This document shows positions 213-47,365 of a DNA stretch of 64,000 nucleotides, piece after piece. The notes under the pieces are model-generated. The model was not told the DNA's origin and made no database searches. It saw only the letters and a list, made by a program, of their open reading frames with translations. The DNA comes from a virus (taxonomy: Duplodnaviria > Caudoviricetes): the IMG/VR virus record IMGVR_UViG_3300028833_000053; one strand, given 5' to 3'. The first letter of the stretch is position 1. Every line of letters starts with the position of its first letter. The translations under genes and the position numbers were made by a program.

Positions 213-611
213 ATGACATTGGAAGAACTTGACGCAGCACTTGAAAAGACTGGACTTGACTTGACCAATCCACCCGACATGGAAGCCAGGAACCAAGTTC
301 TTGCCTTGCATGGGCAGAGCATATTGAAATCAAAATAGGTTCGTTGCGAGAGGTGTTGGTATAGGGAAAATGGGAGATGTTTCCCCGGGTGCAGGTATTA
401 TGACTTGCCATCAGATCCTGTGGAAGTCAGCAAGCAATACTTGGCATCCCCAAATGACATAAGTGTATTCTCCTTCTTGTGTCAGTTCATGATTCCTGTG
501 TATGAACAGGTGACTGGAAACAAGGGTACAATGAAGGAAATAACGAAGCATTTTATGAAGATGTGGAAGAAGAAGAAGAAGAAAAAGAATAGTGTGGGTA
601 AAGGGTTATAA
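213..611 (+). CDS. Hypothetical Cys-containing protein (one in-frame TAG at 336)
   Basis: ATG lies 7 nt after TATAAT (200-205). Read-through of TAG joins it in frame to ORF 405..611. Confidence 0.6.
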
Positions 612-773
612 AATAAATTCAGTTTAGCTTTGATTTTTACATTTTTTGGCGTAAATATTATCTATAACTGAACGGACTTTACACATACGACCAAAAAGTT
701 GTATAATACAGGATATGTTCAAGGCGATGGGGAGTTCCCATCAACTAAACAAACAAAGAAGAGGAAAAAGAAA

Positions 774-6560: not shown

Positions 6561-7604
6561 ATGGAAGTTATAACTGGAAAATTGTGGTTTGAACCATGTT
6601 GTCCTAAATGTGGAAAGACAATTGATATTGAACGAGGAGAAAGCGGACTTTACGCCAGGTGCGGGAAATGCAACAACGAATGGTCTGCATCTTCATTTGG
6701 AGACTTACTTGACGAGCAGAAATGGCTTGAACAGTTCAACCCCGAAAAAACCGAACAAGAATAGACAGAAGAGCCTGAAGAGGGACACGAAGGTAAAAAG
6801 GTTATGGGTACGGTTACAATTCAGAATCACACTACGTTGAATCCAATCACGCTGATAGGCGAGGAGGCCGGCATTTGCTGGGGAGCAGATACAACAGACG
6901 AGGCGAAGAACTACAAGCGGGGAGTGGATTGCATCAAGTCGGACCATGGACGCGCAATGGAGTTTCCCCAGATTTACCTTGTCCTTGAAGGTTGGTCTGC
7001 GAAGGTCATCCGAGAGTTCTACACGCACATTGGCGGCGCCCCGACAAGACTTCAGGCAAGCACAAGGTACATTGACTACTCAAACGGATTCTATTCCGTC
7101 ACGCCACCTTCGGTTGAGAACAACCCGGATGCACTGGCGGCGTGGAACGAGTTCATGCAGACTGTCGCGCCGAAGATTGAGCAGTTGAAGAAACTGGGAA
7201 TCCCGAACGAGGATGCAACCAACGTCCTTCCACTTTCCTACATGACGAAGGTTGTTGTGCGCACGAATCTCCGCAATCTCATCGACATGTGCCACCAGCG
7301 TCTTTGCACAAGGGCGTATTGGGAATTCAGGCAGTTGATGAAGGAGATTCTTTGGCAGTTGGAGAACTATTCCGACGAATGGGAGGACTTGGTTCACGAC
7401 CTCAAGGTGTTCAAGCCCAAGTGCGAGTTGCTTGGCTACTGCCCCGAGAAAAGGGGTTGTGGGAAGAAGGGTAAACGTACCGAAGAGGGTAAATGTACAG
7501 ACGAGGTACAAAAGCCATTGGATTTCATTTGGAATGGAGAAACGCAAACAAAGGTAGTGTCAAGGGATGAACGCTACGATTAGAAGAAAGTGGACAAGGC
7601 GTGA
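6561..7604 (+). CDS. thyX: FAD-dependent thymidylate synthase ThyX; N-terminal Zn-ribbon fused through TAG 6762 (second TAG at 7581)
   Basis: ThyX core 6804-7580 (HGRAMEF, QASTRY, N-L-R, RLCTRAYWEFR). The upstream CPKC..CGKC ORF is in the same frame, separated only by TAG. Confidence 0.85.
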
Positions 7605-9429: not shown

Positions 9430-10194
9430 ATGAACCTTGGAATACCAGATTGTTGCCCCGTGTGTGGGGGAAAGCTTGAAGTCCTTGAAAGCAAGGATGG
9501 AATCAAGAACCTCTTTTGCGTGAACGAGAAATGCCCTTCACGGTTCAACGAGCAGGTCTCCGCGTTCTGCGAAAGGCTTGGCATCATGGGCGTGTCAAAC
9601 ACAACCCTTGAGAATTGGGGCATCAAGACCATACAGGACATTGTTGGATTTACCCCAAATCCGGCATACAAGTCCGAGGTGAAGTTCTCGGAGGAACTTG
9701 ACAAGAAGATGTGGACTGCAAGCAAGGAGAGCATTTTCGTTGCATTGTCTGCGCTTGTCTATGGCGTTGGACGCAGAGAAATGAAGAAGTTCTGGGACAA
9801 CTACGCCCCAACTTGTCTGCATGGCAACATTTCAATTTCCGACCCATCTGTGAAGGAGCAGGCAATCCTTGACAACCTCGATGTTGTTGGAGAGGCGTTT
9901 GATTCCATCGTGCAGAATTCCAAGTACAAGGAACCGGTTGTGGTTGAGACATCCAAGGTTGAATCCACGAAGGGAAGCATCTGCTTCACAGGCAAGTTGG
10001 AGACAATGACCCGTTCCGTTGCACAGGAAAAGGCGAGGAATCTGGGCTATGAGATTGCAGAGTCCGTGGCGAAGGGTCTGGGAACTTTGGTTGTTGCTGA
10101 CGCCGGGTTGAAGGGAGAGCCATCGTCAAAGTTGAAGAAGGCTCAGAAACTCGGAATCAGGATAATGAGTGAGTCAGAGTTCAACGCCCTGTAA
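9430..10194 (+). CDS. ligA: NAD-dependent DNA ligase, C-terminal half (Zn finger, degenerate HhH, BRCT)
   Basis: Begins at IPDCCPVCG..C.NEKC; BRCT ICFTGKL..TRS.A..SSKLKKAQKLGIRIMSE. Confidence 0.85.
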   Translation: MNLGIPDCCPVCGGKLEVLESKDGIKNLFCVNEKCPSRFNEQVSAFCERLGIMGVSNTTLENWGIKTIQDIVGFTPNPAYKSEVKFSEELDKKMWTASKESIFVALSALVYGVGRREMKKFWDNYAPTCLHGNISISDPSVKEQAILDNLDVVGEAFDSIVQNSKYKEPVVVETSKVESTKGSICFTGKLETMTRSVAQEKARNLGYEIAESVAKGLGTLVVADAGLKGEPSSKLKKAQKLGIRIMSESEFNAL

Positions 10195-11618: not shown

Positions 11619-12716
11619 ATGGATTCAATGTTGAAAGCGAGAATTGCATCTGCGAACTCCGCGTATAGGCGCGGCGAACCTGTCATGTCAGACCAGGAGT
11701 ATGACGACCTTCTTGATGATTTCAGGAAAACCGTCACTCCAGAGCAGTATGAGGATTTCATTTCCGGGTTGAACGAAGGTGTCGTTGAACTGGATGATGG
11801 CAAGGTCAAGCATCCCTACATTATGGGGTCGTTGGAGAAGCTGAAGTACGAGGAGCCCGAAACCGTCAAGAAGTGGATTAAGGAGAATATCGTTGGGAAA
11901 ATGTCAGTGTCCGCGAAGGTTGATGGCATTTCCTCACGCGCCGAATATCGCAACGGCAAGCTCGTCTCCCTCACCACGCGAGGTGACGGCTACATGGGAA
12001 TGGATATCACCTCCAAGGCGAAATACGTCAAGGGGCTTCCATCTGAGATTCCCTATGGCGTGTGGGACAATTTCACGGGTTCCATCCGCGGCGAGCTTGT
12101 CATCATGCGCGAGGACTTCGAGAGCATCAAGGACAAGTACGCCAATCCACGCAACGCTTGCGCCGGCATCATGAACCGCAAGGACGGCGACAGGAAGTTC
12201 AACGAGTCAGAGGCAAGGCTTGTGTCCTTTGTCCCCTACACCGTTCTTGGGAACCAGTATGCCAAGGAAGAGCAGTTTGGTTTCCTTGAGGATGTTGGAT
12301 TCAACGTGGCATGGAACGTTCTCATTGACAAGAGCGGCATTGACGACACCATCGTTGATTGGCTTTTCAAGACGGCCCAGGACGAGCTTCCCTATGAAAC
12401 TGATGGACTTGTGATTTGCGATTCCGAATGGAGGAACGAGGACAAGTACCGTCCCGATGGATGCAAGGCGTTCAAGATCAATCAGAGCGCGGGCATCACG
12501 AAAATCATCGGCTTTGACTGGGGTACGCCCAGTGCGAATGGCAAGTTCACGCCAGTTGCCCTTCTTGAGCCAATTCAGCTCGCCGGTACGACAGTGAAGC
12601 GCGTGACCTGCAACAACATCACATGGATTGAGAAGATGGGCATTGAGATTGGCAAGACCGTCAAGGTTTGCAAGCGAGGAGAAATCATACCTGCTATTGA
12701 AGAAGTGTTGGATTAA
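11619..12716 (+). CDS. ligA: NAD-dependent DNA ligase, N-terminal half (Ia, adenylation, OB)
   Basis: Y..GEPVMSDQEYD, MGSL, KVDG, TRGDG, RGE, NPRN, YETDGLV; ends at RGEIIPAI. Confidence 0.9.
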   Translation: MDSMLKARIASANSAYRRGEPVMSDQEYDDLLDDFRKTVTPEQYEDFISGLNEGVVELDDGKVKHPYIMGSLEKLKYEEPETVKKWIKENIVGKMSVSAKVDGISSRAEYRNGKLVSLTTRGDGYMGMDITSKAKYVKGLPSEIPYGVWDNFTGSIRGELVIMREDFESIKDKYANPRNACAGIMNRKDGDRKFNESEARLVSFVPYTVLGNQYAKEEQFGFLEDVGFNVAWNVLIDKSGIDDTIVDWLFKTAQDELPYETDGLVICDSEWRNEDKYRPDGCKAFKINQSAGITKIIGFDWGTPSANGKFTPVALLEPIQLAGTTVKRVTCNNITWIEKMGIEIGKTVKVCKRGEIIPAIEEVLD

Positions 12717-12737: not shown

Positions 12738-12769
12738 ATAAAACCGAGTGAATATTCACTCGGTTTTAT
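12738..12769. terminator. Perfect 32-bp palindrome, probable bidirectional terminator
   Basis: ATAAAACCGAGTGAAT|ATTCACTCGGTTTTAT. Confidence 0.7.
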
Positions 12770-12861
12770 TTTGTATAATTGTAAATAGTAAAGAACGAGG
12801 TTGGATGAAACTCGGAATCTCAACCAACCTCTAACCACAAACAATAATCGAGGTATTGAAT

Positions 12862-13998
12862 ATGGCTAATAAAAATTATACTCATTTCACAGGATAGGAA
12901 TTACTGGATGCGGTAGACTGCATATTTGCAAACACAAATAGAAGACTTCCAGCTACAATAAAGAAATACAATCCTGACTTGCTTTTAGAAATTGAACGCA
13001 GAACACAGTTTCTTAATGCGTTCTATGAGCAACGAAAAAGCAATGTTCCAATTGGTGCAAGACTATTTTGCATTGAACACAATTTGAATTCACAACCAAT
13101 ATGTCAAAACCAAAATTGTCCAAATCATAGTCCAGTTGAATGGAGACATGCAACACAATCGTTTGCTCCACATTGTTCTTGCAGTTGCGCTCAATCAGAC
13201 CCACAAGTTAAAAATCAAATAGAAAAAACCAATGTAGCAAAATATGGCAGTAAAAATGTATTTCAATCTGAAGTGATAAAGAATCGGATACTGAATACTA
13301 TGCGAAACAAATATAATGTGGATAATCCTTCTCAATCTTCAGAAATACAAAAGAAGAAAATTGAAACCTTTATCAAACATTACAACACAACACATCCATT
13401 AAAATGTAAATCAATAAAAGATAAGGTACGAGCAACAAACGAGGAACGTTATGGTGGTCCGGCTCCCATGTGTGATAAAAGTGTTCAGAGAAAAATGGAG
13501 AAAACATGTGAATTTCGCTATGGTGGTATAGGATTTGCATCAGAAGAATTGGCGAAAAAGTCTATTGAGACAACAGTAAAGATATATGGTAAAACACCAA
13601 TTGAATTGGGGCATGAAGCGGCGAAAATAATATCTAAGTCGAAATCCGAAATTGAACTTGACAACTATGTATCTACTATTTGCAATTGTGAAATTGAATT
13701 TAATTGTCGCACAATACTTAAGAATGACCGAGAACTTGACATCTACATTCCATCAAAGAATCTGGCTATTGAATTCAATGGCGACTATTGGCATATGAAT
13801 CCACGATTATATGACGAGAGTTATTACAATTCACAGTCTCAATGTACGGCAAAGGAGAAGTGGGAATATGATAAACTGAAACAGGAAGAATGCCAATCTC
13901 TCGGAATCAAGTTGATTGTTGTATGGGAATATGACTGGATTCATTCTCGAACTGATGTTGAAAACATGCTGCGTACTGAATTTACAAAATCCAGATAA
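12862..13998 (+). CDS. Free-standing homing-endonuclease-like protein (KYG repeats plus C-terminal Vsr/PD-(D/E)xK domain); TAG at 12895
   Basis: Repeats KTN..KYG, ELDIYIPSKNLAIEFNGDYWH, VWEYDW. AT-rich relative to flanks. SD GAGG precedes ATG 12862. Confidence 0.75.
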
Positions 13999-16694: not shown

Positions 16695-17663
16695 ATGGAA
16701 GAAGATTTGACATCAAAGACAATTGGCTATGTGGTTCCGCCTTACGTGCAACCACCTCCACCGCCACCTCCTCCACTACCGCCGCTACCACCTCCGCCAC
16801 CACCGGCTTTCGTATAGGGGTGGATAACGTACATCAACTCGTACATGGACATACGTCTGAAGCAGATGTATGACAAAATAGCGCGTGGTTATTTCATAAT
16901 CGACGAGGCGAGCTTTGACCAGATGAGGGTCAATGACATCATTCTTGGCGGCAAGAGCCTGCGGGCAATAATACAGAAGTTGCTTGGTATGCAGCCGTTG
17001 CCACCACCTCCGGCACCTCCGCCACCTGCCCCAATACCTGTTCCTGTGCCACCTCCACCAGTTCCGGTGCCATATCTTCCAATTGCACCGGTGCCGCCAC
17101 CTCCATATGCTGCATATCCTTATGCACCACCTCCGGGGATGGATATTGATGGCTTGATTGCGTATTTCAACCAGTACGTTCAGGACGTTGGAAAGAAAAT
17201 TTACGAAAAGCTGAAGAGCTACGAAAAGACCCCACATACGCATATCTGGTTGAAGGACAGGTCAACGGCGCACATCCACGAGCTTATTGTTGAGAATGGC
17301 GTTATCAAGACCAATGACCTTGGTGAGATTAATTGCGATGATGATTGCACTTGCACTGATTGCGATTGCTCTTGCAGGCACAAGGAGCGTGACGACGTTG
17401 CGTTCAACCGTCTCTTGATGACCGACAGGTTGACAAAGAACGTATACGAGATATTCGTGGACAACGGTGTTCTTATGACAAACTTGTTCAGGGGAGATTA
17501 GGAAGATTCTTCTGGAAGTGGATTGATTGATTCTACGGATGGAAACATAATAGATTCAATTGACGATCAACAGCCTTGCTCGCATCGTCCTCATCCACCA
17601 CCGTATCCTCCTTTCCCTCCGCCTCCTCCACCGCACCCACATCATCACCATCATAAACAGTGA
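16695..17663 (+). CDS. Polyproline-rich protein with C-terminal His tract (TAG at 16815 and 17499)
   Basis: Continuous 322-aa frame when TAG is read; GTAAATA at 16642. Confidence 0.75.
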
Positions 17664-17674
17664 GGTGAAACACA

Positions 17675-19114
17675 ATGGAAGGATATACTGACACAAGGGT
17701 ATTCGGCTATTATGGACAGCCTTATGCGTACATTCCCGTACCGTAGCCACCGGTGCCACCACCTGTGGCTCCGCCTCCCCCTCCTCCCCCGCCGCCGCCA
17801 CCGCCTCCATACATATATCCATATGCGCCGCCGCCCGAGGTGAAGCAGCACGAAGAACCAGATCCACCAATAGGAAGTGTGCCTTTGTTTTCGTTCTCCG
17901 TCATTTCGGATGTGCATTTGAACGATGAGACGGATGAATCGGGTTGCGATGACTTGAAGCATTTGTTCTACTTGCTTGGGCAAAGGAATTATCTTGACGA
18001 TTTCAACCTCAAGTACATTTGCTGTTGCGGTGACATTGGAAACAACGAAGACCACGAGTTTCCAACGTTTCAACGCATTGTGAAAAAACACTGCCCGATA
18101 GAGTCCGACAAGGTGTTTTCTTGTGCAGGCAATTACGATTAGGAATTGACCGCGGCACAATGGAAAGAGCAAATGTACGATGCAAGTTTGCATGAGAAAG
18201 TCACGTCCGACAAGAACTTCTCGTTTACGGAAGACAATTTCGTGTTCGCGTTCATGTCTTTGGCTACGCAAGAGGACACTTTGTCCGACGTTCCTGAAAG
18301 GAAATGCTATTTGGATGACGTGAACACGCATACAAGGGAATGGTTGACGGAAGTTGTTGAAAGCGCAAAGGGCAAGACCTTGTTTCTGTTCATGCACTAT
18401 CCTCTTGTCAACCGTCAGTGTGCGGACACCACCCAAGTTGATGTTCCCGTGTATGATTGGACAAGTGGAAGGTTTGACAGCCAAAGAATGAACGTTGCTT
18501 CAACTGCGGTTCCCTATGCGGGTTCCTTGGATCGTTGGTCTCTCCAAGAAGTGCCATTGCATTTTGGCTATGGCTTCCACACGCCTGTTGGAATTCAAGA
18601 CTACAGCATAAAGTCTGAATCAGAGTAGATAATTGAAATTTTGGACAGGCACGAAGAAGGAAAGACTTTCGTGTTCAGTGGACATTCTCATCTTGTGTTC
18701 CAAACGGAAAAGTACGATTACTTCAGTGCAACGGGGTATCCAAACTTCAACGTTGCTGCAATACCCGACACCAACATCGTTACGATACACGTTCCGGCGT
18801 TGAATCACCCAAGAATGTTGGCTGTAACCGATCCCGGAAACATAGCTGGATGGGATACGGTATCACCAGCTTCCCCCTATCGTCAACCTAGCCAGTCTTG
18901 GATAGTGACGGTATATGATGACAAGCTTGTTTTGAATGGGTTTGAATCCAATCTTAACCACGACAAGAAGTATGGGGATTTGCTGACTGACTACACCTAT
19001 ACCTTGAACTTGAATGATTATGTCACGCGGGATGAATAGCCCGGCGACGATGATGAAGGTGGTCATGGTGGAGATTCAGAAGTTGAACACTGGATTAGGA
19101 CACCCAAGAAGTGA
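17675..19114 (+). CDS. Calcineurin-like metallophosphoesterase with polyproline N-terminus (4 in-frame TAG)
   Basis: Motifs SDVH, GD, GNYD, FMHYP and FSGHSH are spread over three ORF-track fragments joined by TAG at 18140 and 18626 (further TAGs at 17744 and 19037). Confidence 0.85.
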
Positions 19115-19463: not shown

Positions 19464-19760
19464 ATGGCAAAGTTCACTAAAAGAGAATCAGAAGAGGAAG
19501 AGGACGAGAAGGCAAAATCCCTTCGTTGCTTTGAGAATCAGCCAAACATCAACATGGTGATTCCCTGGCTTTACGAGATTAGCAAGTCCATGTCAAGTTC
19601 AAGAGACAGTGATGATGATGACGACAAGGCAAAGTCCTTGAAGTGCTTTGAAAACCAACCGAACATCAACATGGTGATTCCGTGGGTGTATCAAATATAC
19701 AAGTCCGTGAAATCTGGTGGTGGCTCAGGTGGAGAGACGATAGAATGGGATGAGGATTAA
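19464..19760 (+). CDS. Protein with an internal tandem duplication
   Basis: KAKSL.CFENQPNINMVIPW.Y.I.KS occurs twice. Confidence 0.7.
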   Translation: MAKFTKRESEEEEDEKAKSLRCFENQPNINMVIPWLYEISKSMSSSRDSDDDDDKAKSLKCFENQPNINMVIPWVYQIYKSVKSGGGSGGETIEWDED

Positions 19761-19764
19761 GAAT

Positions 19765-20154
19765 ATGGGAACAAAAGTCACGTTCAAGATAGTTTCTTCG
19801 GGAAATCCATTTGTTTTTTCTACCAAGAAAAACGATTTGGTTCCTGATTATAAGGATGGTCAGATAATTTTCGTGGAAGATTAGTGCAAGATATACCTTG
19901 ACTTCCACGATGAGCGCAAGTGCTATACCCCAGACGTTCCTGTTTCATCCGGTGGATTGCGTTATCTGGGTATATTTGACGATGGATTTGATCAAGATGA
20001 TGAAACTACATGGAAAATTGGTGGAGACAGTGTTTCACCCAATGAAAATGACATGGCAGTTTATGGCAACAAGGAGTTCATGTACCGCAAGGGCGAGGAT
20101 GGGAAGTTTGGTTGGTTTGAAATCGGTGACGAAGACGCTCCTGTGTGGAATTGA
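19765..20154 (+). CDS. Probable virion/tail-associated protein (TAG at 19882)
   Basis: DGQIIFVED*CKIYLDFH continues in frame into ORF 19957..20154. Confidence 0.7.
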
Positions 20155-23015: not shown

Positions 23016-23023
23016 ATACCATC

Positions 23024-25210: not shown

Positions 25211-25759
25211 ATGGGCAATTTCTATATAAAAACATTGAATGTAACTGGAAACAGGCTGTTTTCCAATGAGAAAAATCCATTGGACATTCCTCCGTTGCCA
25301 GAGCCAGAGAAGGTTTAGATTCCTGAAGCCAAACCATAGAGGTTGTCTATCGTATGGTGGAGGCATCCAAAGGACGAGCCGAAGGATTGGAAGGAACTGA
25401 AAAGCATTCCACCACCGCCCTGGGCGCCGCCGCCACCACCTCCTCCCATTCCTCCACCTACACCGGCTCCGACTCCTCCGCCAAAACCACCTACACCATA
25501 TAGTCCATATTCCGACCCGGATACGGACAAGCCTGGTGTCATTCCATACATAAGGCCGATCAAGGGTGTTTTGCAGCGTGGCACTATTCATTGTGTTTGG
25601 ATTAAGGGCAAGAAGCCACCACCCCCTCCACCTCCGCCAATTCCACCACCACCATTCCCGGTTCCCCCTCCTCCGCCAGGACAATCCATTCCTTTGGTGA
25701 ATCCAATGCAGCAATGGGGACAATATATGTACTAGGCGTTTCCAAATCAACCACGTTGA
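25211..25759 (+). CDS. Polyproline-rich protein (TAG at 25316, 25337, 25733)
   Basis: Continuous 182-aa frame; GTAAATA at 25175. Confidence 0.7.
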
Positions 25760-25790: not shown

Positions 25791-26438
25791 GTGGTTAACT
25801 ACTTTTACATATCGGACGTACATTTTGGCTATCAGACAGACACAAATCCCATAAGGCGGACGTCCTATCAACTTACTTTCTCGCATTACAAGTTGAACGG
25901 TCCAAAGGACTATGACAACAGATTGACAAACAACTGGAACGCCATAGTGAAACCAACGGACCATGTTTTCATTCTTGGGGACATTTCCTGCTACGACACG
26001 AAAACCACGGTGAACTTGTTGAAGAACTTGAAGGGGCAGAAGCACCTCATATTGGGAAACCACGATTATCAGTTCCTTCACGATAATGACTTCCGCGGCC
26101 AGTTCGTTGAAATCAAGAACTACAAGGAGCAGAACATTGGGGATGGCGTGAGACTTATTCTCACTCATTATCCATTTTATACGTGGAATGGACGTTACAA
26201 AGGCAATCCAATGTTCTACGGTCACGTCCACAATACCTGGGAATATGACTCCTTCAAACAGTGCCAGGAAGCCCTGTACAAGTCATAGAACGAAAACTAT
26301 CCCTTGAACTCCTTGAACGTTGGCAGCATGATGCCTTGGATGAATATGACGCCGAGGAGCTTCCAATTCTGCATGAATGAAATGCAGAAGCAGCAAGACG
26401 AAGAAATTAGGCAGTTTCACATCTAGGGAATGAAATGA
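25791..26438 (+). CDS. Calcineurin-like metallophosphoesterase (TAG at 26286 and 26424)
   Basis: SDVHFG, LGD, GNHD, HYP, YGHVH. The family C-terminal NVG.MMPWMN.TP motif lies after the first TAG. Confidence 0.9.
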
Positions 26439-30786: not shown

Positions 30787-30895
30787 TATGTTGTATAATG
30801 TAATTGAACTACGCAACAATTGGAGGTAGTTGCGATTCAGTTTGGTTCTTTATGAACAAACTGCTCTACCCGAAGTTCCTTCGGTGATAAAAATG
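30786..30895 (-). ncRNA. Predicted TnpB omega/reRNA (scaffold overlapping tnpB 3' end plus flanking guide)
   Basis: CCGAAGGAACTTCGG hairpin and right-end hairpin; guide inferred from the flank at 30803-30786. Confidence 0.5.
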
Positions 30896-32100
30896 TCCTT
30901 CAAGTTTTGTGCAGCGTTTTGGTCACGGTTGTGTTCCTTGCCGCACTTTGGACATAGCCATGTTCTATCTGATATAGTCAAGTCCCTATTGACATACCCA
31001 CAAACATTGCATGTCTTTGACGAGGCAAACCACTTGTCCGCCTCCATTACTATCTTCCCATGTTCTTCGGCCTTGGCTTTCAACCGTTGAACAAAGGTGT
31101 ACCAACCCAAGTCATAAACAGACTTGCCATGATTGGATTTATCTGGTGTGTTTTTTCTTTCGATCCATTTCTTGAACTTCGCCATGTCCTTCAATGATAG
31201 AGATTCAACAACTATGACATCATTTCCTTTCACCAATTCAGTTGAGGTTTTTTCTATGAAGTCTTTGCGCTTATTCTTGATATGTTCGTGAATACGAGCA
31301 ATTCTCATTCTGAGTTTTTCTTTCAATGACTTGTTTTTTACCGTAGATATTTTTCTCTAAAGTTCAGAAAGTTTCTTCTCATAGGCTCTATAATTTCTAT
31401 CGTATTGGGGTGAATTTCCTTCGTCATCTACGAAGAAGTTTGTTAAGGACATATCCAGACCCTTGACTTTTAAGTTTGGTTTATTGACATCCTTTTGAGT
31501 TTTAGTTGTAATAGCATCTTCGTACAAGATTGAGACATAATACTTCATAGATGGTGTTCTGGAAAAAGTCATGCTATGTATTTTTATGTTTTTAACAACA
31601 CGATTATCTCTGAAAGTTATCCAACCCAGTTTTGGTGCTTTGACTTTCCTTTTATCAAAATCTATTTTCAAGTTATTGTGGTTGCAAACAGTACGATATG
31701 AATTCTTAGCAAACTTTTTCTTGAATTTTGGAAATCCTTTTTCTGAGATTGGTACTTTGGGGTCTTTACATTTTCTCCAAAAATTTTCATATGCTACTCC
31801 AAGATTCATTCGCGTTTGTTGAAGTGCAACAGAATCCACTTCTTTCAAGAATATGTTTTCTTCCTTTAGTTGTTTTTCAGTTTTGTACTTATATTCGTAA
31901 AGTTCTCTCGGGGTGTTCTTTAGTTTTACATATACATCTTTTCTTTCTGAAAGCATAGTGTTGTATAAAAATCTGCAACATCCGAATGTTTTGTCCAATA
32001 GACTTTTCTATTGAACATTCGGATATATTCTAATCTTTAATGCTTTCAATCTCATACTTTCTATCTATGTTCTATTATTATTTACATAAATAGAAATAAA
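30804..32100 (-). mobile_element. Solo-tnpB (IS1341-like) element, no tnpA; left end not defined
   Basis: AT-rich. The right end has hairpin GCAAC..GTTGC followed by GTAGTTCAA, typical of IS605-family ends. Confidence 0.65.
30850..32055 (-). CDS. tnpB: IS200/IS605-family TnpB RNA-guided nuclease, intact under TAG=Gln (401 aa)
   Basis: HTH RIYPNVQ*..KTFGCCRFLYN, RuvC GLD/VVESL/RDQNAA, Zn ribbon CNVC..CPKC; TAG at 32008 and 31357. Confidence 0.92.
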
Positions 32101-32715: not shown

Positions 32716-35028
32716 TTACTTTTTGTTTTCCACTATCCATGACGTGTCCTGAAATGTCATGTCGGGTTTCCCAAATTCCTCATCTACGGCTTTCATAACT
32801 CCACCAAAATCTATAGACGGAACATAGTCGTGTCCAGAAGTAAACATAAATTTCAGTTTTTTTGAGTTTTCTATATCGTGTTTAACGCCATCGTGCGTAT
32901 GTAAGCCATCAATATAAATCAAGTCGATATTTTTCAAGTTCTGGTTTTGTTCAATGAAAGTGTCCAATGTGCCTTTGTGTTTGACAATCCGGGGTTCGTC
33001 CTTGAAACGTCTGTCAAAGTCTTTTTCAATGCTTGACATTTGGTTGTGTTCAACTTTTCTGCCACCAACCATATAGCTGTAGCCATTTTCCCAGGGGTCT
33101 ATGCAATATATCTTGTCAACTTTTCCCGTATTGAGCATGATTTCTGCTCCTTCCCCACGGAACGTTCCAACTTCCACCACTGTGAGATTATGGTTTGTCT
33201 TTTCATATACATAGTTTACAAGGTCAATCAAACCAGCAACGCTTTTATTTTGTCTACGCATTTGGTGAAGTGGTTTGATTGTGAATATGCCCTTGTATTC
33301 GTTTTCCCCAAGTATTGCATTGACGATGTTCTCGCATGGTGTCTTTCCGTTGGGATAGTTCAAGCAATATTTTTCCCTGTACTCCCGGCGCAGTTCTTTT
33401 TTCATGTCGTTTCCATTCACCACGTTTTCAATGAACTTGTCCAACGTTTCACCTTTTTCAGCCCAGCAAAGTTCATGGCAGTCAATGGCGTCCTTTCCCA
33501 TCTTTGACCATATTTTTGGATTCATGTTGATGGTGTTCGCCATATAGCACACCGGTTTGTCCATGTAGAGATATTCGCAACGGAACGAGCCGCAATCATG
33601 TATCATCGCATCTGACCATTTCATCAACGGAACGTAGTCGTCTTCAGTTGATATGGTAAGCTCGTTGAACAACTTTATCACATAGGAGTTTTCCAATTTG
33701 CCACGCCTGTATTTCATATACAGATTTGGATGCGGACGCCATATGAATTCAACTTTGTCCTTCCATTTCTATACAACGTCATAGACCATCTTTGCGCATT
33801 TCATGAAACTGGAATAGTTTCCATATTTGTTCTTCTTATCGACCGTGTGGTGGAATGACAGAAGTATTCGTTTCTTCCCGTTGCTTTTCCATGGATCGTT
33901 GAATTGCTCCTTTGGCGTATTCAAATATTCTTCCTGTGGGTGTCCAGTGAATATGTCATTGACATTGACGCATACATCTTCTGAATCTTCGCAATTGATG
34001 TATGCTTGATCATACTGTTTTCTTTGGGTGATGTTGTGCCACGCCAAGGTGTATCTGACGTTTATCAGTTTGAAGTTTTCAACGATGTTCTTCTTTATGG
34101 ATTCATCGCGCAAGAACAATTCATTCTCATACTGCATTGGGGGAACAACTAAATCCGCTTGCTATATGTTTCTCCTCACCTCTTCAACAGAGTCTGCCAG
34201 GATTGTTTTGAATCTTCCGTCTTTGTCCAGGAAATCCCGGAGTATCCATGTCTTGTCCTTCGTTGTAATCAACTTTGCGTTTGGCAACTTTGGTTCAGTT
34301 CTAAATATATTTCCTGAAAAGAACATGACCTCAATTGGAATTCCATCTTTCACCTTTTGCCGCAAGGCTTCTTGTTTGTCAATTCGCGTTCTCTTAAGCA
34401 GAAAGGTTTCTATGTCAGGCATTGTCGCTTGTGTTCTATAGTATGGTATGCCCAGTTTTCTTCTATTGATTAGTTTTACCTTGTTGGGGTAGGGTGTTTT
34501 CATGGTTTCTCTTGAAATCACAATTCGTTTGAACCTGCAATCGCAGTTCGCCAAGTCCTGTAACGTCACGTTCTGGGATTTTGCATAACTCGCTGGACTG
34601 AGCAAAAACACTGGCTCCTCGTGTGATTCAATCATTCGCCTTACTCGCAAAAGATATTTTTCCTCCACTATTCTGGAAATGTCGTTGGAAATGTGTTCAT
34701 ACGGCCATTTCCCATCTGGATATGTATCGTATGACGTATGAGTTTCAGTCAGCTTCTTGTCTTCCTTGTGGTGTACATAATGGATTTCTATGTTCCCTTT
34801 GTCCACTTTCACAACGAACGTGTTCGGGCGTATTGTGCTTCTTTCCACAGCATAGTCCATCCAATTGATGTGTTCCCAGTTTTTCATTATATAAAGAATG
34901 GAATGATACGGGCATATCATCCCGCAAAAGGGGTTGTTGTATTGAAGATGCTTGAATCGGTACACCCAAATACCACAACAGTTGTTTGAAATCAATAACA
35001 TGGTTGTCTCCTTAAAGTGAATTTCCAT
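32716..35028 (-). CDS. 770-aa three-domain glycan enzyme: DUF1919-like, CDP-glycerol glycerophosphotransferase-like, class I SAM methyltransferase (TAG at 34162 and 33769)
   Basis: ISNNCCG; WRPHP (only reached by reading TAG); SDAMIHDCGSF..EYLY.DKPV; EVGTFRGEG, YIDGLH, GHDY. Confidence 0.8.
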
Positions 35029-35761
35029 ATCTGCGCAAGAAGTCCTCTCTTGCCGCTTGTTGCATTTCCATCATCTTTTGCTGTTCATCCGTTTGCGGCA
35101 ATGGGGAATTGATTTGGGATTCCAATCCGCTTCTATCCAACAACACGAAATGGGAATAGGCGCATGTGAATGAGTGCTGGATTTCATCCGCTTCCGAATA
35201 GGACAACTGCAAGTCGGAGAAAGCCTTTATCCATGCGTTCTTGAAGCGGAATCCCACAATGGGCTTCTTGTATGGTGAAAGCAATGTCACGTCGATGTCG
35301 CAGGCGTTTATGAGTCCGTCGGCGTTCACGTTTCCAGTGTCAAGGGCGTTTGCTCCCTTGTTCACGGGGGCGTTGTTCATACACCAGTTGTACAAGGCAC
35401 GGTAGTCTGTCCAATCCGCCGACACGAAATAGTTGAACGTGATTTCCTTTGAGCCCGGGCTCATGGTATAGGTTGGTCGTTCAATCTCGATTGAGCGATA
35501 CATTACCTTGTCAGTACCCATTTCAATTGAAGGTATGGTGAAGGTGGAAAGGCGAAGATTCACGTTTTGATATGCAGTACCCAATACCAAGTAAAGGGGA
35601 ATGTCCGCAATCCACTTGTTCTTCGCGGCATATGTGTTTTGGTTGGAAATGCCGTCGTTGGCGTTTACGTTTATGCCAGGATAGACAAGTTGCTAATCCC
35701 TATTCAGATTTCTCGTCTGATGGGGATGTTGGAAATGATTTATGCCACTCGGAACTGCCAT
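35012..35761 (-). CDS. T4-like tail tube/tube-terminator family protein (TAG at 35693)
   Basis: F.IPSI.MG, Y..LYNW, D..VTLL, F.F.NAW...SDLQLSY, F...YSHF. Confidence 0.65.
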
Positions 35762-36344: not shown

Positions 36345-38366
36345 TTATCTGCGCTTCACGTCCTTTGACATTGGATAGTCGTGATCCTCAGGATATTCTG
36401 CAATCTGAAGGTTCTCGGCCCAGATGTAGTGCGGCTTTTGCGCTCCCTCGGTTGTTGCATCAACGTAGGTGAACGTCTCTTGGAAGTATGGGTGTTCCTC
36501 GGCCTCTTGCGTGTCTGCCGCGTCACCATCACGAACAAGTTCTTCAAGATAGTCGTTTGCGGAATCGTCGGTCATCTTCAAGATGTCCGGGTCGGTCTTC
36601 TCGATGTACGCCACAACGTAGTTCAGAGCCTCTTCGGCGCTGAATGCGTATGCGTTGTAGTTGTCGGTCATGTAGCCAGAACCCCACCAAAGTTTCACGA
36701 TGTAGAGTTTGTCACCGTCGGATTCTGAATTCACAAGGGTCAAGTCCTCGTCTTCCAGCTTCCAACCTGAAACCTCGTTCACAGGTTCTTCTTCATCTTC
36801 AAGTTCTTCCTCATCTTCTCCCTGGTCAAACGTGCTTTGGTATCCGCAGTTCACGGCGTCGGCCAAGTCTGGGGCATTGAGTTCAATCTTGTCAATGCTG
36901 CCATAGAACTCGCTGTTCTCAACTTCAACATGGTCTGCTTCAATCTTGTCCCTTGAAAGGTCTGCGTGTACCCAACCATGTCCATAGTCGAAGCAAATGT
37001 CCATCGTGCGTCTTGCAACTTCGTGTCTCAGCTCCTCTTCGGCCTCGTCCTCGTCATAGCTGTTCGTTGAATATGAGATAGTGGCAATTCCACCATCAAT
37101 CTTCGCCGTTGGGGTTTCGCCAAACTCATGTTCTTGCCAGAAGAAGTCGTTGTAGTAGTCCTCTGCGGCAATTTCATACTCACCTGGCATGATTTCAACC
37201 TGGCACTCGTAGTAGCTCTCATAGTCCTCCTCCATCTTGACATACTTCTTTTCCAAGATGCTTCCGAACTTCAAGTCCTTGATGTGGACGGTATAGCCCG
37301 CACCGGCTCCTTCCTTCACAAGTTTCCTGGATTCGGCTGCCATCAACGGAACCTTCTCGCCAATTTCCAACATCTTCAGTTTCTTCGCAGGAATGTCCTC
37401 TTGCTTGTGGCTGATGAGGAAGCTGTGGATATGGTTCATAGTTGTTCCTGACAAATAGTCGTTCAAAAGCCAGAAGTCAAGGTGAGAACCATCCTCGCTT
37501 CTTTCAAGCCTTGCAACGGGAGTGTTGTAGGAGAAGAGCGTGAAACCATCATCGTCCTCTTCCTCTGATGCCTTATGCCCAAATGACTTGCGTCCATTCT
37601 GTGGCACAAGTTCCTTTCTGATACCACCCTCGGCGTAGTAGTCGTCGCCCTCGTATTCGTCATCATAGCTGGCAAGATGCTCCAACTCACTCTTAATCAA
37701 GTCCGTATTCTTCCAGCACCAATCGTCAAAGCCCTTGTGGTTGGTGTCTTCCGGGTGTTCCTCGTCATAGAGTTCCCCAAGGTTGCCATAGAACTCGGTT
37801 GGTTCAATCTTGCATCCCTTGTAGAGAATTGCCCAGTCAACGTCCTTTGCTCCCTCTATTCCATAAAGGGATTCGTTGACAAACTTCAACACCTTTCCCT
37901 TATTGGTCTTGAACAGTTTTCCGCTCTCGGAAACGTATTCAAGTTTCCCGTATTTGTTTTGGAAATAGTTTGAGCGGTTGAACTATTCCTTGGTGATGTT
38001 TAGCTTTTTCATTGTCTTTTTGCTCTCGGTAAAAGTTGGATCTTCATTCAAGATGAGTTCGCCTATTCTGACAAGTCCATTCAAGTATCTTCCAAGTCCC
38101 CCAAGATGGGTTCTCTTTGCGCGTTCAACGTCTTTCTTCAACGCAGCTGTTGCAGGGTAGTCCCCTTCCCATGCGTCAAGGATTTCTTCGCATAGATCGT
38201 CCAAGATTGCGGCGTTTTGGATACCCCTTCCGGTTCTCAAACAGAATTCATGCCAACGTCTGACGGAATCTATGGTTTCTTGGTTGAGTTCAAGCCTCTC
38301 CGGTGGAACCTCGTAGAAATGGAACTCCGATTCCCGAATAACTTGTCTGGATTTGTTTTTCTTCAT
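36345..38366 (-). CDS. 673-aa acidic multidomain protein, probable internal virion protein (TAG at 37983)
   Basis: ORFs 37983..38444 and 36345..37892 are one frame joined by TAG; GTAAATA at 38393-38399. Confidence 0.7.
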
Positions 38367-38415
38367 AGGGCAAATAACCTTCTCTTTTTGATTATTTACC
38401 AAATCAGCCCATAAA

Positions 38416-39420
38416 TCAGAACATGGCTGCGGCCTTTGTGCCAATCACGGTGACGTAAATTTCGCTCTTGGCGTTGGCAGAGGACATTTCCAGGTTCATG
38501 TGCATGAGGTTTGGCTTGGAAATGACAATCTCGATGTCCTTTGCCTTTGACGCCGAAATGAAGCTGCGGCAAGTTGACGAGAGCATGTCAAGGATTGCCT
38601 TGTTGCAGAGGAACACGAAATTCTGCGTGGTGGAGGTTGTGCAGCAAATGTCCTTGTAGTTTTCCGCAGCGAAGGTTATTTTGCCAAACTCCACCGACAC
38701 CTTGTTGCCAATGTTTGACCTCACAAGTTTCTGGTTGTCGGATATGGTGGCGTAGAGGGTGTTGGGCAAAGCCTCGGAAGTCACGTCCTCTTCAATCTTC
38801 GCCTGTTCGGGGATTTGGATTTTGATGGAACTTTCGGTGGTCTCCGATAGGGTTGTCATCAAGTCGTTTATCTCAGTGAACTTTCCAGCCCCAATGTTCG
38901 CCGTCAAGAGGAAATTGGATTGCAAGTCCTCCGGGTTTGCGGAGTGGTGAAGGACATCACCGTACCTTGAAGGGACAAGCACTTTCTCAATGTTTCCCAT
39001 CTGCGTTTCCATGATGGCGTTGGTGGAAAGTTGGAACTTTATGTTGTACTTTGGCGACGCAATCCTGATATGGGAATTGCACACAAACAGCTTCACCTTT
39101 CCTCCAGTGAATATGGAGGTGTCCTTTATGTCATAGTATTTGCCGACGTTCTTCAACACCAGAATCAGCTTCTTGACGTTGGGGATGAACAGCGTGATTC
39201 CATCGGGAACAACCGTCCCTTCTTCTTGCTCATCGTCAATGCAGATGGAGTTCGTGAAAAGGTCCGACTTTCCCGTAGCCCATTTGTTGAACATCGTGGT
39301 TTCCACCTGCGTTATGGTGGCTTGGCAGCATGACTGCTCCAATGTGGTGTCAAATGTTGTGAGCATCCCCACAAATTGCTCAAAGTCCTTTATCTTAAGT
39401 CTGTATTCTTCGTTTGTCAT
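38416..39420 (-). CDS. Hypothetical protein, possibly sliding-clamp-like
   Basis: Size, alpha/beta pattern and location near the helicase; the functional call is weak. Confidence 0.5.
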   Translation of the reverse strand: MTNEEYRLKIKDFEQFVGMLTTFDTTLEQSCCQATITQVETTMFNKWATGKSDLFTNSICIDDEQEEGTVVPDGITLFIPNVKKLILVLKNVGKYYDIKDTSIFTGGKVKLFVCNSHIRIASPKYNIKFQLSTNAIMETQMGNIEKVLVPSRYGDVLHHSANPEDLQSNFLLTANIGAGKFTEINDLMTTLSETTESSIKIQIPEQAKIEEDVTSEALPNTLYATISDNQKLVRSNIGNKVSVEFGKITFAAENYKDICCTTSTTQNFVFLCNKAILDMLSSTCRSFISASKAKDIEIVISKPNLMHMNLEMSSANAKSEIYVTVIGTKAAAMF

Positions 39421-41983: not shown

Positions 41984-44900
41984 TCAACCCTCCCCATTTA
42001 TGGTGTAGATTATGTTTCCAGATTCATCCTTGAAGTCCACCTTGAACTGGAACGGCTCTTGGTTCGTGTTGTAGCCAGTTCCAAATTCGGCGTTTGCAAC
42101 CAAGGAAACGATTTGACTGCTCGTCTTTCCAATAATTGTCACTTCCCTCAAGAGGTTGCATCCGTCAAATGCCAAACCTCTAATCGTTGAAACGCCACTT
42201 GGTATGGTTATTGTCGTCAAGGACGAGCAGTTTCTGAACGCCAGTTTTCCAATTGTTGTGACTGTGCTTGGGATAGTCACGGATTCAAGCTGTGTGCATC
42301 CAAGGAACGTGCTGTCGCCTATTTCCTGGACTCCTTCAGGTATTGAAATTTCCTTGAGGACACTGCATCCATAGAACGCATATATTCCAAGTTCGTCCAA
42401 TCTCACGCTTGGTGCTATGGTTATCGTGGCAAGTGTTGAGCAATCCTGGAATGCGTTGTTTCCAATCCTTCTCACGTTGGTTCCGACGGTCACTTCCTCC
42501 AACTTGCCACATCCCATGAACGCCTTGTCGCCGATGTACTTGATGTTGTTTCCGGTTATCACCTTTGTAATGCGCTTGTTGTTGGTGAACGCCAGGTCGC
42601 ATATGCCTCTTGCACTGGAGAGGTTGATTGTTGTAGACGTGCCACTTGGACCGACAACCCATCCATCCACGGACTCCACGCCACTGATTGTTGTTTCGTA
42701 TAGGGACGTGTTGCATTCCGCGAACGCACCGGAGCCTATTCTGGTAACGCTGTCAGGTATCGTCACGCTTGTCAAGTTCCCGCATCCATAGAACACTTCG
42801 TTTCCAATTGTTTCAACGGTGTCTGGAATTACCATTGACGTTATCCCAGTTCCCTCAAAGGCGTTGTTCTTGATCTTCGCTATTGGAAGCATTTTGCTTT
42901 GCTTTATCATTATTGAAACAACGTCGGATGCGGACAATCCCAATGCACCCAATTCACCCGCCAAGTAGTTTTCGGGGATTACTCCGTCTGGCAAGTTTCT
43001 TCTCTAATATGTTCCGTCTCTCATCTTCCATATCAAGTTGTAGTCGTTGTCGTCAAATGTCACAGTGCCAGTCCAATGAGCGTAGAAAGTTGGGGAATAG
43101 TCCTTGCTGTTTCCAGTGTTTCCAGACCCCATTTCATACACATTGTTTTCCAACTTTGTTCCACCAGACGCCGCCGTGTACCAACCATAGAATGTCTTTC
43201 CCGTGTATTTCGGCGTTTCCACGTCAGTGTTCTTGAATTTCGTTCCATGATTGTATTTCTTCGTCTTTGTGGTGCTGTTGTCCGTGAATTTCCCACCGTT
43301 TGCGTTGAACTTGACGTTGTATTCATATATCTTCCAGTCGGCCTTCAAGGTCACGTTGGACGTTGGATAGAACGTGTCGTCTTTCTGTCCCACGTTTTCT
43401 GTTTCATTCAGCCATCCGAGGAATTCGTGACCAGTCCTTCTGGCTCCAATCAACGTCACAGGCTCTTTACTCCACTGTGCGTAGATTGTGAACACGTCTC
43501 CTTCTGTGTTCTTGAGGTTTTTGACAACTTGGCCGTCGGAATAAGCCGTTCCGCTTCCATTTATCTTGGTGTTCCATCCTTCAAAGTCATGTGTCACCGA
43601 TGCGGTGTCGGAGCCAATGGTTTCTCCTCCGTTTGCGTCGAATGTCACCTCGGAAACCTTGCCATAAGCGTTTGTTGTCAATGCCGTTCCTGGATTGGAT
43701 GAATTGTGTATGTACTGCAACTCCTGACGTTCCATTCTGCCAGACGTGCTTCCATTTCCCATGAAAGCAACATAGTATTTTATTGGTCGCCATTGTGCAT
43801 ACATATCTTCATTTGCATACACAATGTATGTATCGCCTATGTCGCTCTTCTTTGTTCCTCCAGTCGGGGCAGTGAACCATCCCGTAGGGCAATAGGTTGG
43901 TCTTATCGGAGCGGGAAGTATTACATGGCCGACATCTGCCCACTTTGCGTACAGGTCTATTGTGTCGTTGTTTGTACTGGTCAAGTTCTTTACGTATTGT
44001 CCATCTGAAAAAGCAACATCTCCAGCCGCGGACCTTGCCCAACCCAAGAAGTCCATGGCAACATCCACAATGTTTTGATCCCCCTCTATTCTAGCACCTT
44101 CGCCATTTGGATACAGGTGTATGTGGTACTTGTGGTTTATGAATTCATTTAAGCTCAATGGCTTCTACTCATCGTAGTCGTATGAGGAATTTTCCATTGC
44201 GCCATAGGTTGCCCCATTGCCATTGTACTTGATGTAGTATTTGACCGCAAGTCTCCAAATGGCATAGTACGTTATGTCCCTTGTTATCGGAGTGGAAGTT
44301 GTGAGCTTGTTTGCCCCGGATGCAAGGGAATCATACCATCCAACAAGTCCATATCCCGTTCTGGTCGTTGTTGGCAGGGAATCTATCGTATGCCCGTATA
44401 TCACATGGTCTTCGGTCCTGGGGGATGGCTCTGTGCCGCCATTGGCGTTGTAGAAAACAGTCAACGTGTTTATTTGCCAGTCGGCAATCATTGCAACAAG
44501 ATGGTTTGCCTTTGGGGTCAAGTTCTTGAAGTACAAGTCCCCGTCCGCGCCATTTCGGCATTTGTGCAGACGGTCCGGTATGAATTGGTCTTGCGCTCCT
44601 GAACTTATTCCGTATCTTGCTGTTTCGGGAATCAATCCCCTGGCAACGTTCCAACCCATGAATGTATGCCCTTTCAAAACCGGCGATACGAGCTTGAACG
44701 CCCTGTCATAAGTGGCGTTTGTCAAGAACACTCCCCCCTTTGAAACGTAATTTGACCTCAACAAATCGTCCATTGGCATATACATCACTCGGTAGGTGTT
44801 CGCAGTCCAGTGGGCATGGTATGTCACGTTTCCAGTTATTGCCTAATTGGGGTTTATCTTGCTTCCGCCTGAAGCCGCAGTGTACCATCCTGCAAGTTTG

Positions 44901-47365
44901 TAGCCCTCTTTTTCCGCAGGGGGCAACACGCCCAAGGTCTCGCCATGTTTTCTCTTGTATTCCTTGACCTCGTTGCCGCCATGGGAGTTCCATGTCACGG
45001 TATATTCGTTCTTGTGCCACATTGCGTGGAATATGGAATCGTGTTCAACAACGGTTTCCTTTGAGACAACTTCTCCGTTTTCGGTGTACCACCAAGAATC
45101 AACGTCAAGGTAATATCCTTCCCTTGTTCCAGGACTGTACATTTCAGTCAAACCACTCTCTTCCAATGTCTGTCCCGGAACCACAAGCGTTTCCGTTGGG
45201 GTGAGGCTTCCTCCTTCGGAGTCCCATTTTACAACGCAAAATTCTTCCTTGTTTGCAGCAGGCTCTCCCGACAAGTCCCTCTCGTAATCGGAAACCTCCA
45301 TACATTCCCATATGTACACTTCCATCATTGGGGGCATGTTTTCGTGTGGGATTGTCACCGCGTCCTTCACCTGGTATTCCAATGGGCTTATTTGGTAATT
45401 GAGGTTTTCGTTCTTGACGCCGTTTACAATTTCGCCTTGTTCGGTTTCGTTTTTGTCCGCATTCACCAACTGAGGTGTTGCCCCTCCCGTGTTCGCGCAC
45501 GTCCAAGATGCCTCTTCAGTTGTTTCCTGCGAGGAAACTTGAATCTTGTGCGTGTGTGTTGGAATGTTGGATTCACGCAAGCAAACATATTCCTCTCCCA
45601 ATTTCCTTCCCAACACCTCGTCCGTCTTGTTTTCGTTGTCGGATTCAACTCCCCTCAAGAAGTTCATAACCCTGCGCCAACGTGTTCCGCCGTATTTTTG
45701 TATGACCTTTTGCTCAATGTCGTCCGTTGTTGAAATGATGATGCGTCCAACGTATGTCATGGGCTTTACGGATTGCAAAAGTTCCTTCAATGTTTGCAAC
45801 TTCGCTATTATTCTGTCCAAAACTTCAGTGCAGTGGTTGTACCACGCCATGAACTCGCTTATTGGTATCAATTCTCGGTCCAACTTGGGCTTCATTATCT
45901 GCGCCAACGTGACGAATTCCTTGAGGTTTTTCACTTCAACGACGGTTCCTTCTGAATCATCATCCGGATCGTCAGAATCCTCGTCAACCAAAACCCAACT
46001 TCCATCGTCAAAGGTTTTTATCTTGACCATTTCCCACCCAGCCTTCGTGGGGTCGTACTTCACTTCCTCGCCAAGTGTGTTTGCGGTGATGTCCGCGTAG
46101 ATGTCCAAGAATTGTTGGATTGTTTGCTTCATCAAGGAAACACTTTTGCTTCCGTCATTTTCCTCAACAAGCAATCTCAACAGATAATCGTGCGTGGTGA
46201 GGTCGTCTTGCTTGAATTCATCCAAGTGTGGGTGTGGCACAATATCCGAAAAGTACTGGGCTTCTGCGGTATTCCATTTCTCTTCCGCGTCCCGTGCTTT
46301 CTGCAGTTCCCATTCTTCCTCTTCAACAGTCAATATCCTGCGTTGGACAAAAGAAACGTCAAGGTCATCCTGGTATGCCCTGTATCGTACATACACATTC
46401 AAGGACGGCGGCTTGTTGTTGTGCTTCTTCTTCCTGTTTCTCCAGTTTATGACGTTTTCGCCATAGAGGGGGAAGGTTATTGCATCGGCTCCGGTTGCGG
46501 ATGGATTTGTCACTATCTCCAATGTCTTCTCTTCAAGCCGTCCATAGTTTGCGTCATAGGACACTATGGCTTTGTGGCCCGCAGTGAAGTCCCCCACCAA
46601 CTTGCTTCCCCCCTTTATGGAGCTGAAAGATGAAGTCATCGTTTCCGCTTTTGTGTCCTTGTGGGTGTGCAAAAACGGCTTGTCCCCTATTTCAACTTCG
46701 TCAAATCCTTCCTTTAGGTTCTTTCCTTGGTTGTAGCACCATATCCCACCGGGCCCATACAAGAAATCATGGTATATGACTGCATCCATGCTGTCAATCC
46801 TGCCAACTATTATGACTTCTTTCTGTGAATTCAAGGCATATTGGGAGGTTTTCCAGGTATAGTGCTTTTTCATCGTCTTTGATTGGATGTCAACAGCACC
46901 TGGATAGTTCAACTTTGCATGGGCTTTCAAGTAGTTTATCTTGTCGTCTATGCCCTTTTCCAAATCCCTTGTTTTTATGTTGAAATAGTCTTTGTATTCT
47001 TCCCATACATAGCGTCTTTCATAACGTTGGAATTGGTCATCGGTAAGATGCACCAACTTCGACCACTTCCAATCGTCAAGACGTTCAATCAAAATTTGAT
47101 CATCTGGAGTTTCATCACCAACCTCCGTATTGGAAGAGGGAATGAGCGCAAAACGGAAATTGTCCTCGTCACCTTCAATCAAGAACTGGAAGATGGATTG
47201 GTTCAACGCCCAAAATATCGTCTTTTGCATGTACACGACATATCCATCTGTTTCGTTATCGTTTCCAGGGAAGCATAGAAAACAATCCTTCGCGTCTTCG
47301 GAGATGGTCAGTTCGTGGACGGAAATTGGATTTATTCTGAGATATTCGCGTACATCAATGTTCAT
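41984..47365 (-). CDS. ~1,793-aa tail/baseplate adhesin: gp10-C-like module, InlB B-repeats, BspA-type LRRs (TAG at 44843, 44165, 43004)
   Basis: GGTRW..FLRGV..NIPTHTH..HENMPP..VYIW; many GY.F.GWYT..TYYA.W repeats; IP.SV..IG..AF..C..L repeats. Four ORF-track pieces lie in one frame. Confidence 0.85.

Follow-up and report, generated by a model that had tools for sequence, protein, structure and literature searches.

We analysed a 64,000-nucleotide stretch of viral DNA (Duplodnaviria; Caudoviricetes; IMG/VR record IMGVR_UViG_3300028833_000053), referred to here as the window, together with the phage genome from which it derives. In this phage TAG is a sense codon. The amino acid that by far best fits it is glutamine, as judged from codon tables, likelihoods and motif columns, and this supports the proposal made in an earlier reading of the window from its letters alone (the sequence-only reading) that genetic code 15 is in use. 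The observations as a whole are very probably best explained by a reassignment of UAG from stop to Gln, in which UAG is decoded by a phage tRNA with the anticodon CUA (tRNA(CUA)), termination is carried out by UGA and UAA only, and the recoded codons are concentrated in late genes, probably following a logic of staged translation.

The window corresponds to the minus strand of positions 329268–393267 of a virus record of 433,895 bp, which is a single contig with direct terminal repeats and a CheckV completeness of 100%. The GC content of the genome is 46.6%. Pfam matches were found to Portal_T4 (gp20; 1e-63), T4-gp15_tss (the gp15 tail-sheath stabiliser; 2e-19) and Terminase_6N (the T4-type large terminase; 4e-17), and a gp55-like late sigma factor family was also recovered. 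The cultured phages nearest to it by portal are T4-like cyanophages and coliphages, with an identity of 20–26%. Because of the T4-type matches and this level of portal identity, we take the source to be a divergent T4-like jumbo phage, complete at about 434 kb. A portal search of IMG/VR identified relatives, comprising two complete genomes, G1 (418 kb) and G2 (414 kb), plus fragments; records of relatives are IMGVR_UViG_3300021400_000025 and 3300021255_002539. The source genome, G0, was compared with G1 and G2, and a fourth related phage, L083, was used at single TAG columns (TnpB, 26286 and 35693). A search for the host, made via TnpB in representative prokaryote genomes, gave no match; the closest TnpB copies were found in related phages rather than in a host.

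The sequence-only reading had proposed calling the genes under both codes, and this was done with a caller based on a codon-usage score trained on long standard open reading frames (ORFs). Reading TAG as sense raises the coding density from 0.812 to 0.844 and reduces the number of genes from 549 to 435. When TGA or TAA is taken as sense instead, both the density and the codon score fall, and the same pattern is found in G1 and G2. A greedy longest-ORF density was dropped as a test, as it was also raised by TGA as sense, and the codon-score caller was used instead. There are approximately 291 in-frame TAGs in G0, making up 0.24% of all codons and about 7% of Gln codons (279 in-frame TAGs were found in G1 and 317 in G2). 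They occur in 119 of the 435 genes, which is why the gain in density is modest. The called genes stop at TGA (274, 63%) or TAA (161, 37%), and none ends in TAG. When ORFs of at least 120 codons are followed beyond their stop, 24% of those ending in TAG stay open for at least 120 further codons, compared with 9% for TGA and 5% for TAA. There is a mild excess of TAG near the 3′ ends of genes.

Protein alignments to G1 and G2 span 156 distinct G0 TAG codons, counting a codon as spanned when there are at least 20 aligned residues on each side, and the identity is 0.471 upstream and 0.474 downstream of the codon. The sequence-only reading had noted that the breaks in genes are never TAA or TGA; at the scale of the genome this is upheld by the relatives' alignments, which hold 213 in-frame TAGs versus 15 TAA or TGA. 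There are 262 gene ends at which the position of a TAA or TGA stop is common to all the genomes, and only two cases in which a G0 TAG lies opposite a relative's stop, both of them in the window (26424, and 51717 in the TROVE gene). On the basis of these counts, TAG essentially never acts as a terminator. Near the ends of genes, a few TAGs have the look of former stops that are now read through for three to seven codons.

These results also bear on the simplest alternative, that TAG is a normal stop and that the broken genes reflect pseudogenes, natural gene splitting, or errors in sequencing or assembly. Such an explanation would agree with a coding-density gain of about 3 points only, and with TAGs 7581 and 26424, which are at positions where a stop is expected. 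It is effectively refuted by the equal conservation before and after the 156 spanned TAGs, by the ratio of TAG to TAA and TGA within the alignments, by the near absence of TAGs opposite a relative's stop, by the presence of TAGs in essential genes (portal, terminase, gp15 and gp55), and by the recurrence of TAG at the same position in independent assemblies, for example at 26286.

The identity of the amino acid was assessed from the same alignments. Opposite G0 TAG codons, G1 and G2 respectively carry CAG 27 and 23 times, CAA 7 and 9 times, TAG 10 and 7 times, and AAG 4 and 11 times. In the reciprocal direction, the G0 codons opposite the relatives' TAGs include CAG (18 + 18) and CAA (14 + 14). 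CAA is two mutations away from TAG, and mutational proximity alone therefore does not explain the CAA partners. The observed residues were then scored against the empirical substitution profile of each amino acid, giving log-likelihoods of −301.8 for Gln, −470.2 for Lys (the next best) and −766.4 for Tyr, a lead for Gln of 168 ln units. Gln makes up 46% of the residues opposite TAG, compared with a Q-to-Q conservation of 64%, so that the enrichment of Gln expected under code 15 is present.

Conserved motifs point in the same direction. The two TAGs of TnpB had been placed by the sequence-only reading on Gln residues of the family motifs, and this proved to be the case: the YPxxxQ column contains Q in 117 of 117 homologs and in all four TnpBs in the PDB, and the LQR column contains Q in 69 of 120 homologs and in three of the four PDB proteins. 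The orthologous TnpB of L083 has CAA at both sites. In the NPFAYFTxI motif of gp55, 56 of 135 distant homologs have Q at the TAG column, compared with a background of 3.6%, and at codon 156 of a metallophosphatase (the GNHDQ motif) three of four homologs have Q. Codon 420 of a glycerophosphotransferase is polar and not decisive (E 13, K 4 and Q 1 in homologs). The variable TAG columns show E, K or R, which is usual for columns of Gln. Alignments to T4 gp15 and portal structures from the PDB, at about 20% identity, place L, H, E and L opposite TAG; these are too distant to be used for single columns and were not counted. Codon 289 of a glycosyltransferase is within a stretch that cannot be aligned.

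ARAGORN identified 36 tRNAs in the genome, with no tRNA-Tyr or tRNA-Gly among them. A tRNA array outside the window (genome positions 310600–323600) consists of 34 genes, and several class-I isotypes (Thr, Ala and Asn, with Arg-UCU elsewhere) are 81–91 nt long with long variable regions. One tRNA, also outside the window at c[410487,410576], has the anticodon CUA. The sequence-only reading had suggested that a tRNA-CUA, GlnRS and RF2 be sought in the rest of the genome. The first of these is thus present; genes for the other two were not found, as a domain search of the genome gave no RF1/RF2-type PCRF domain and no domain of the GlnRS/GluRS type (class-Ic synthetases). As neither a GlnRS nor an RF2 gene is present in the phage, tRNA(CUA) is presumably charged by the glutamine system of the host.

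The tRNA(CUA) is 90 nt long, with U1–A72, G10 and A73, and folds as a cloverleaf with five arms; the Rfam tRNA model matches it weakly because of the long extra arm. Among 96 phage tRNAs its nearest neighbour is the tRNA-Gln(UUG) of G2, the D-arm being nearly identical. It is preceded by a terminator hairpin and by a sigma70-like promoter, in which 10 of 12 positions match. A search with Rfam around the gene at E ≤ 0.01 found no HDV-like or theta ribozyme and no other RNA element. The extra arm forms a hairpin whose loop, UUCUGAA, has CUG at its tip; the anticodon loop of the genome's own tRNA-Gln(CUG) is CUCUGAA. IMG/VR was scanned for a pattern consisting of the CUA-loop, UYCUGAA and the T-loop, with a scrambled loop as control. 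The pattern occurred in 14 places, five of which are ARAGORN-validated tRNA(CUA)s of 89–93 nt, and the control occurred in eight places with no tRNA. The outer pairs of the extra stem covary across six phage tRNA(CUA)s. An extra arm that carries a spare anticodon therefore appears to be a recurrent design, for which a brief literature search found no published account, and this arm may serve to recruit GlnRS. In E. coli, GlnRS charges the amber suppressors supE tRNA-Gln(CUA) and su+7 tRNA-Trp(CUA), and it accepts the CUA anticodon with U35. The phage tRNA resembles these in having U1–A72 and G10, and differs from them in its fifth arm with the UUCUGAA loop and in A73, and in being part of a programmed change of code, where those of E. 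coli are mutant alleles.

The form of this tRNA, together with the columns described above, is relevant to the question of whether TAG is sense but encodes another amino acid, such as Lys, Glu or Tyr. A 90-nt tRNA with a class-II-like long extra arm and A73, the lack of a tRNA-Tyr among the 36, and the predominance of E or K in several TAG columns in distant homologs could all be read in this way. We nevertheless consider it very unlikely. The substitution profiles place Lys 168 and Tyr 465 ln units below Gln; Tyr is rare opposite TAG (1 of 161 codons opposite G0 TAGs and 8 of 213 in the reciprocal direction); CAA, in spite of its distance from TAG, is among the commonest partners, and is second in the reciprocal direction; the conserved-motif columns are Q; and the extra arm bears a Gln anticodon loop and is not of the Ser, Leu or Tyr type. 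A Tyr-type suppressor specifically (long arm, A73, missing tRNA-Tyr) was rejected on the codon tables and the likelihood.

The TAGs are unevenly distributed among the genes. The motif GTAAATA, which resembles the T4 late promoter TATAAATA, is found upstream of 64 genes and is 13-fold enriched, and the motif GTATAAT, an extended −10 element (GGTATAAT), is found upstream of 48 genes and is likewise strongly enriched there. From their sequences, the GTAAATA and GGTATAAT motifs look like late and early promoter classes. TAG is carried by 47% of the genes behind GTAAATA versus 11% of those behind GTATAAT (Fisher p = 1e-4), and the window shows the same pattern. The genes with TAG include portal, gp15, terminase, gp55 and giant virion-type proteins; those without include DnaB, parts of an NAD-ligase, dUTPase, the chaperonin and Dam methylases. 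The gp55-like factor (genome positions 174288–174932) has a TAG within codons 24–26 in all three phages, at positions that shift between them. A TAG on the Q of its NPFAYFTQI motif is found in G0 only, and not in G1 or G2. We note that four public gp55-like entries (P0181, P0182, P0213 and P0286) stop at residue 125–126 of the query, directly before the TAG column, and probably represent genes of other recoded phages that were cut short when called under the standard code.

This distribution fits the published model (Borges et al.) in which recoding delays the translation of late genes until the suppressor has been made. In the likely sequence of events, early genes, behind sigma70-like promoters and mostly free of TAG, would be translated by the unmodified host; the suppressor tRNA(CUA), with its sigma70-type promoter, would build up next; and the TAG-bearing late genes would be made at full length after the suppressor has accumulated. 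A more specific version, which we put forward tentatively as a possible but not the probable arrangement, is a built-in timer: the sigma70-driven tRNA(CUA) would receive Gln as its UUCUGAA arm mimics the loop of tRNA-Gln for the host GlnRS, and the TAG-bearing gp55, and hence the late regulon, would then be made.

Several points weigh against the reassignment as described above. The gain in coding density is small. The longest-ORF rule inflates the number of TAGs counted in the first tenth of genes. At some TAG columns, distant homologs are rich in E or K rather than in Q. The promoter classes are based on motifs, and the timing is derived from the analogy to T4. At the locus in G1 syntenic to the suppressor gene (L082:1616-1686), the tRNA(CUA) is an unrelated sequence of 77 nt without the extra arm, and in G2 a tRNA(CUA) was not found: ARAGORN with default and relaxed settings, a pattern for the anticodon loop and an Rfam search of the syntenic locus were all negative. 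The suppressor locus thus turns over between G0 and G1, and the 317 in-frame TAGs of G2 in a genome with no detectable tRNA(CUA) imply that the phage tRNA is not strictly required.

The last of these points raise the alternative that read-through is independent of the phage tRNA(CUA), because the phage disables the host RF1 or draws on a host or co-infecting suppressor, UAG being read by the near-cognate tRNA-Gln(CUG) or by a tRNA supplied in trans. It would account for G2 and for the turnover of the locus, and is in line with the results of Borges et al. (bioRxiv 10.1101/2021.08.26.457843), in which a suppressor tRNA was detected in no more than 40% of the phages with TAG recoding. We regard it as improbable, given that a tRNA(CUA) is kept at the same locus in G0 and G1 and has its own promoter in G0, that no RF1-targeting function was identified, and that a tRNA(CUA) in G2 may simply escape detection.

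Reassignment of TAG to Gln (genetic code 15) is known in gut and rumen phages of the crAss-like, Lak, Garnet, Amethyst, Sapphire, Agate and Topaz clades (Borges et al.), and has been proved by proteomics in two crAss-like phages (PMC9523058). The phenomenon is well documented in phages; the lineage is new. The present phage resembles the code-15 gut phages in its use of TAG for Gln, in having a phage tRNA(CUA) and no phage aminoacyl-tRNA synthetase, in early genes that are compatible with the standard code, in the concentration of recoding in structural and late genes, and in a host that presumably uses the standard code. It differs from them in being T4-like, in its size of about 434 kb, in its GC content of 46.6%, and in having TGA (63%) and not TAA as its main stop; it does not match the low-GC, TAA-preferring background proposed by Borges et al. 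as the route to recoding. Recoding affects only 27% of its genes. Accessory genes for RF2 or aminoacyl-tRNA synthetases occur in some clades and are not obligatory; RF2 is present in some Lak and Agate phages, unlike here, where no such gene was found.

Jumbo phages of code 15 with a fragmented Portal_GP20 have also been described (Anim Microbiome 2026, PMC13037316), in a survey that required a 10% gain in coding density. As in those phages, the T4-type portal here is fragmented under code 11, and suppressor tRNA(CTA) genes are present and are absent in some members. Unlike that set, the present genome gains only about 3 points with the caller used here, so that lineages like this one could escape such screens, their recoding being sparse enough to be overlooked by searches based on density. 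The results extend TAG-to-Gln recoding to a T4-like jumbo lineage of mid GC content that terminates with TGA and is a poor fit to the low-GC route. In practical terms, the standard code splits or truncates about 120 genes of this phage, including the portal, the terminase, the late sigma factor and several giant virion proteins, and re-annotation with TAG as Gln is needed ahead of any functional reading. Three features provide testable handles on how phages switch the code of a host: the suppressor tRNA has a promoter of early type, a TAG persists in the late sigma factor, and the extra arm resembles a Gln anticodon.

Within the window, the sequence-only reading had listed 26 in-frame TAGs. 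All 26 coordinates are TAG (CTA on the plus strand for the nine minus-strand sites), and each is in frame inside an ORF of 132–1858 amino acids when TAG is read through. The estimate that about 16 genes are fragmented under the standard code was correct to within two or three. It had also been stated that conserved motifs continue across the breaks, and Pfam domains do span TAG in TnpB (where both the HTH and the OrfB domains run over TAG codons), in two metallophosphatases, in the glycerophosphotransferase domain and in a Flg_new repeat. Alignments to relatives continue over codons 336, 16815, 19882, 23060, 26286, 35693, 37983 and 44843. About 13 of the 26 sites are thus directly supported as sense codons, by a Pfam domain or a relative's alignment spanning the codon. 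Two to five are not secure coding TAGs and may be former stops or be located ahead of the real start. TAGs 7581 and 26424 are seven and four codons before a TAA or TGA end, homology ends ahead of both, and G1 has TAA at the position aligned to 26424; from their positions these two appear to be former stops, or still stops. TAGs 6762, 12895 and 17744 may precede the true start codons of their genes, and the ORF at 25151–25759, with three TAGs, is doubtful as a gene. Two TAGs were absent from the list, 19741 and 51717 (near the end of the TROVE gene), as was a further one upstream of TnpB, which is probably non-coding. The features concerned are as follows (window coordinates).

213–611, plus strand: ORF of 132 amino acids with TAG 336; alignments to G1 and G2 cross the codon (TCC and AAG there).

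6561–7604, plus strand: ThyX gene, with the core coding sequence probably at 6804–7583; Pfam Thy1 covers residues 93–268 only. TAG 6762 is maybe upstream of the start; TAG 7581 is at or near the end and is a possible former stop, the relatives' homology ending at residue ~306.

12856–13998, plus strand: DUF7487 homing-endonuclease-like gene, in which TAG 12895 is codon 14; whether this TAG is coding is uncertain. Multi-copy paralogs are scattered over both G1 and G2 and have D, K and L at this column.

16695–17663, plus strand: ORF of 322 amino acids with TAGs 16815 and 17499, and a GTAAATA late-like motif upstream.

17675–19114, plus strand: metallophosphoesterase of 479 amino acids with four TAGs (17744, 18140, 18626 and 19037); Metallophos_2 spans codon 156.

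19717–20154, plus strand: ORF of 145 amino acids with TAGs 19741 and 19882; the aligned codon in G2 is GAG, followed one codon on by a TAG of its own.

22913–23668, plus strand: C92 (YiiX-type) amidase with TAG 23060; the relatives have AAC and AAG there, and conservation carries on past the codon.

25151–25759, plus strand: doubtful ORF of 202 amino acids with TAGs 25316, 25337 and 25733, passed over by the codon-score gene caller; it has weak paralog matches only, with Q and N at two TAG columns.

25791–26438, plus strand: metallophosphatase of 215 amino acids; TAG 26286 is TAG in G1 and G2 and CAG in L083, and TAG 26424 is at the position of the G1 TAA stop.

30850–32055, minus strand: TnpB (IS605 OrfB), with TAGs 32008 and 31357 on conserved Gln columns of the family.

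32716–35028, minus strand: glycerophosphotransferase/methyltransferase fusion of 770 amino acids with TAGs 34162 and 33769; Pfam spans codon 420.

35012–35761, minus strand: ORF of 249 amino acids with TAG 35693, which is CAG in G1 and L083 and TAG in G2; the flanking identity is 12–13 of 15.

36345–38444, minus strand: ORF of 699 amino acids with TAG 37983, which is CAG in G2 and AGG in G1; the flanking identity is 10–11 of 15.

41984–47560, minus strand: BspA-type leucine-rich repeat (LRR) / Flg_new repeat protein of 1858 amino acids with TAGs 44843, 44165 and 43004; a Flg_new repeat spans codon 906. Under code 11 it consists of four abutting pieces in the same frame, separated by TAGs alone.

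48197–64000, plus strand: block in which the genes are compatible with the standard code and mostly lie behind the sigma70-like GTATAAT; among their products are a GroEL-like chaperonin, a TROVE protein and two Dam methylases. TAG 51717 of the TROVE gene is eight codons ahead of the next stop and is aligned to a relative's TGA stop; one more TAG is called in a small ORF at 51870–52211.

Within this last block, positions 48197–56690 hold the GroEL-like chaperonin, the TROVE (Ro60-like) protein and the two Dam-type methyltransferases, which are adjacent, and the GC content of the methylase stretch is low, at 34.5%. Near the DUF7487 gene, a short DNA repeat at approximately 12760–12881 recurs in relatives. 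The domains of an NAD-dependent DNA ligase are split over two ORFs (9430–10194 and 11619–12716) in permuted order, with the Zn-finger and BRCT domains first and the adenylation and OB domains 1.4 kb downstream.

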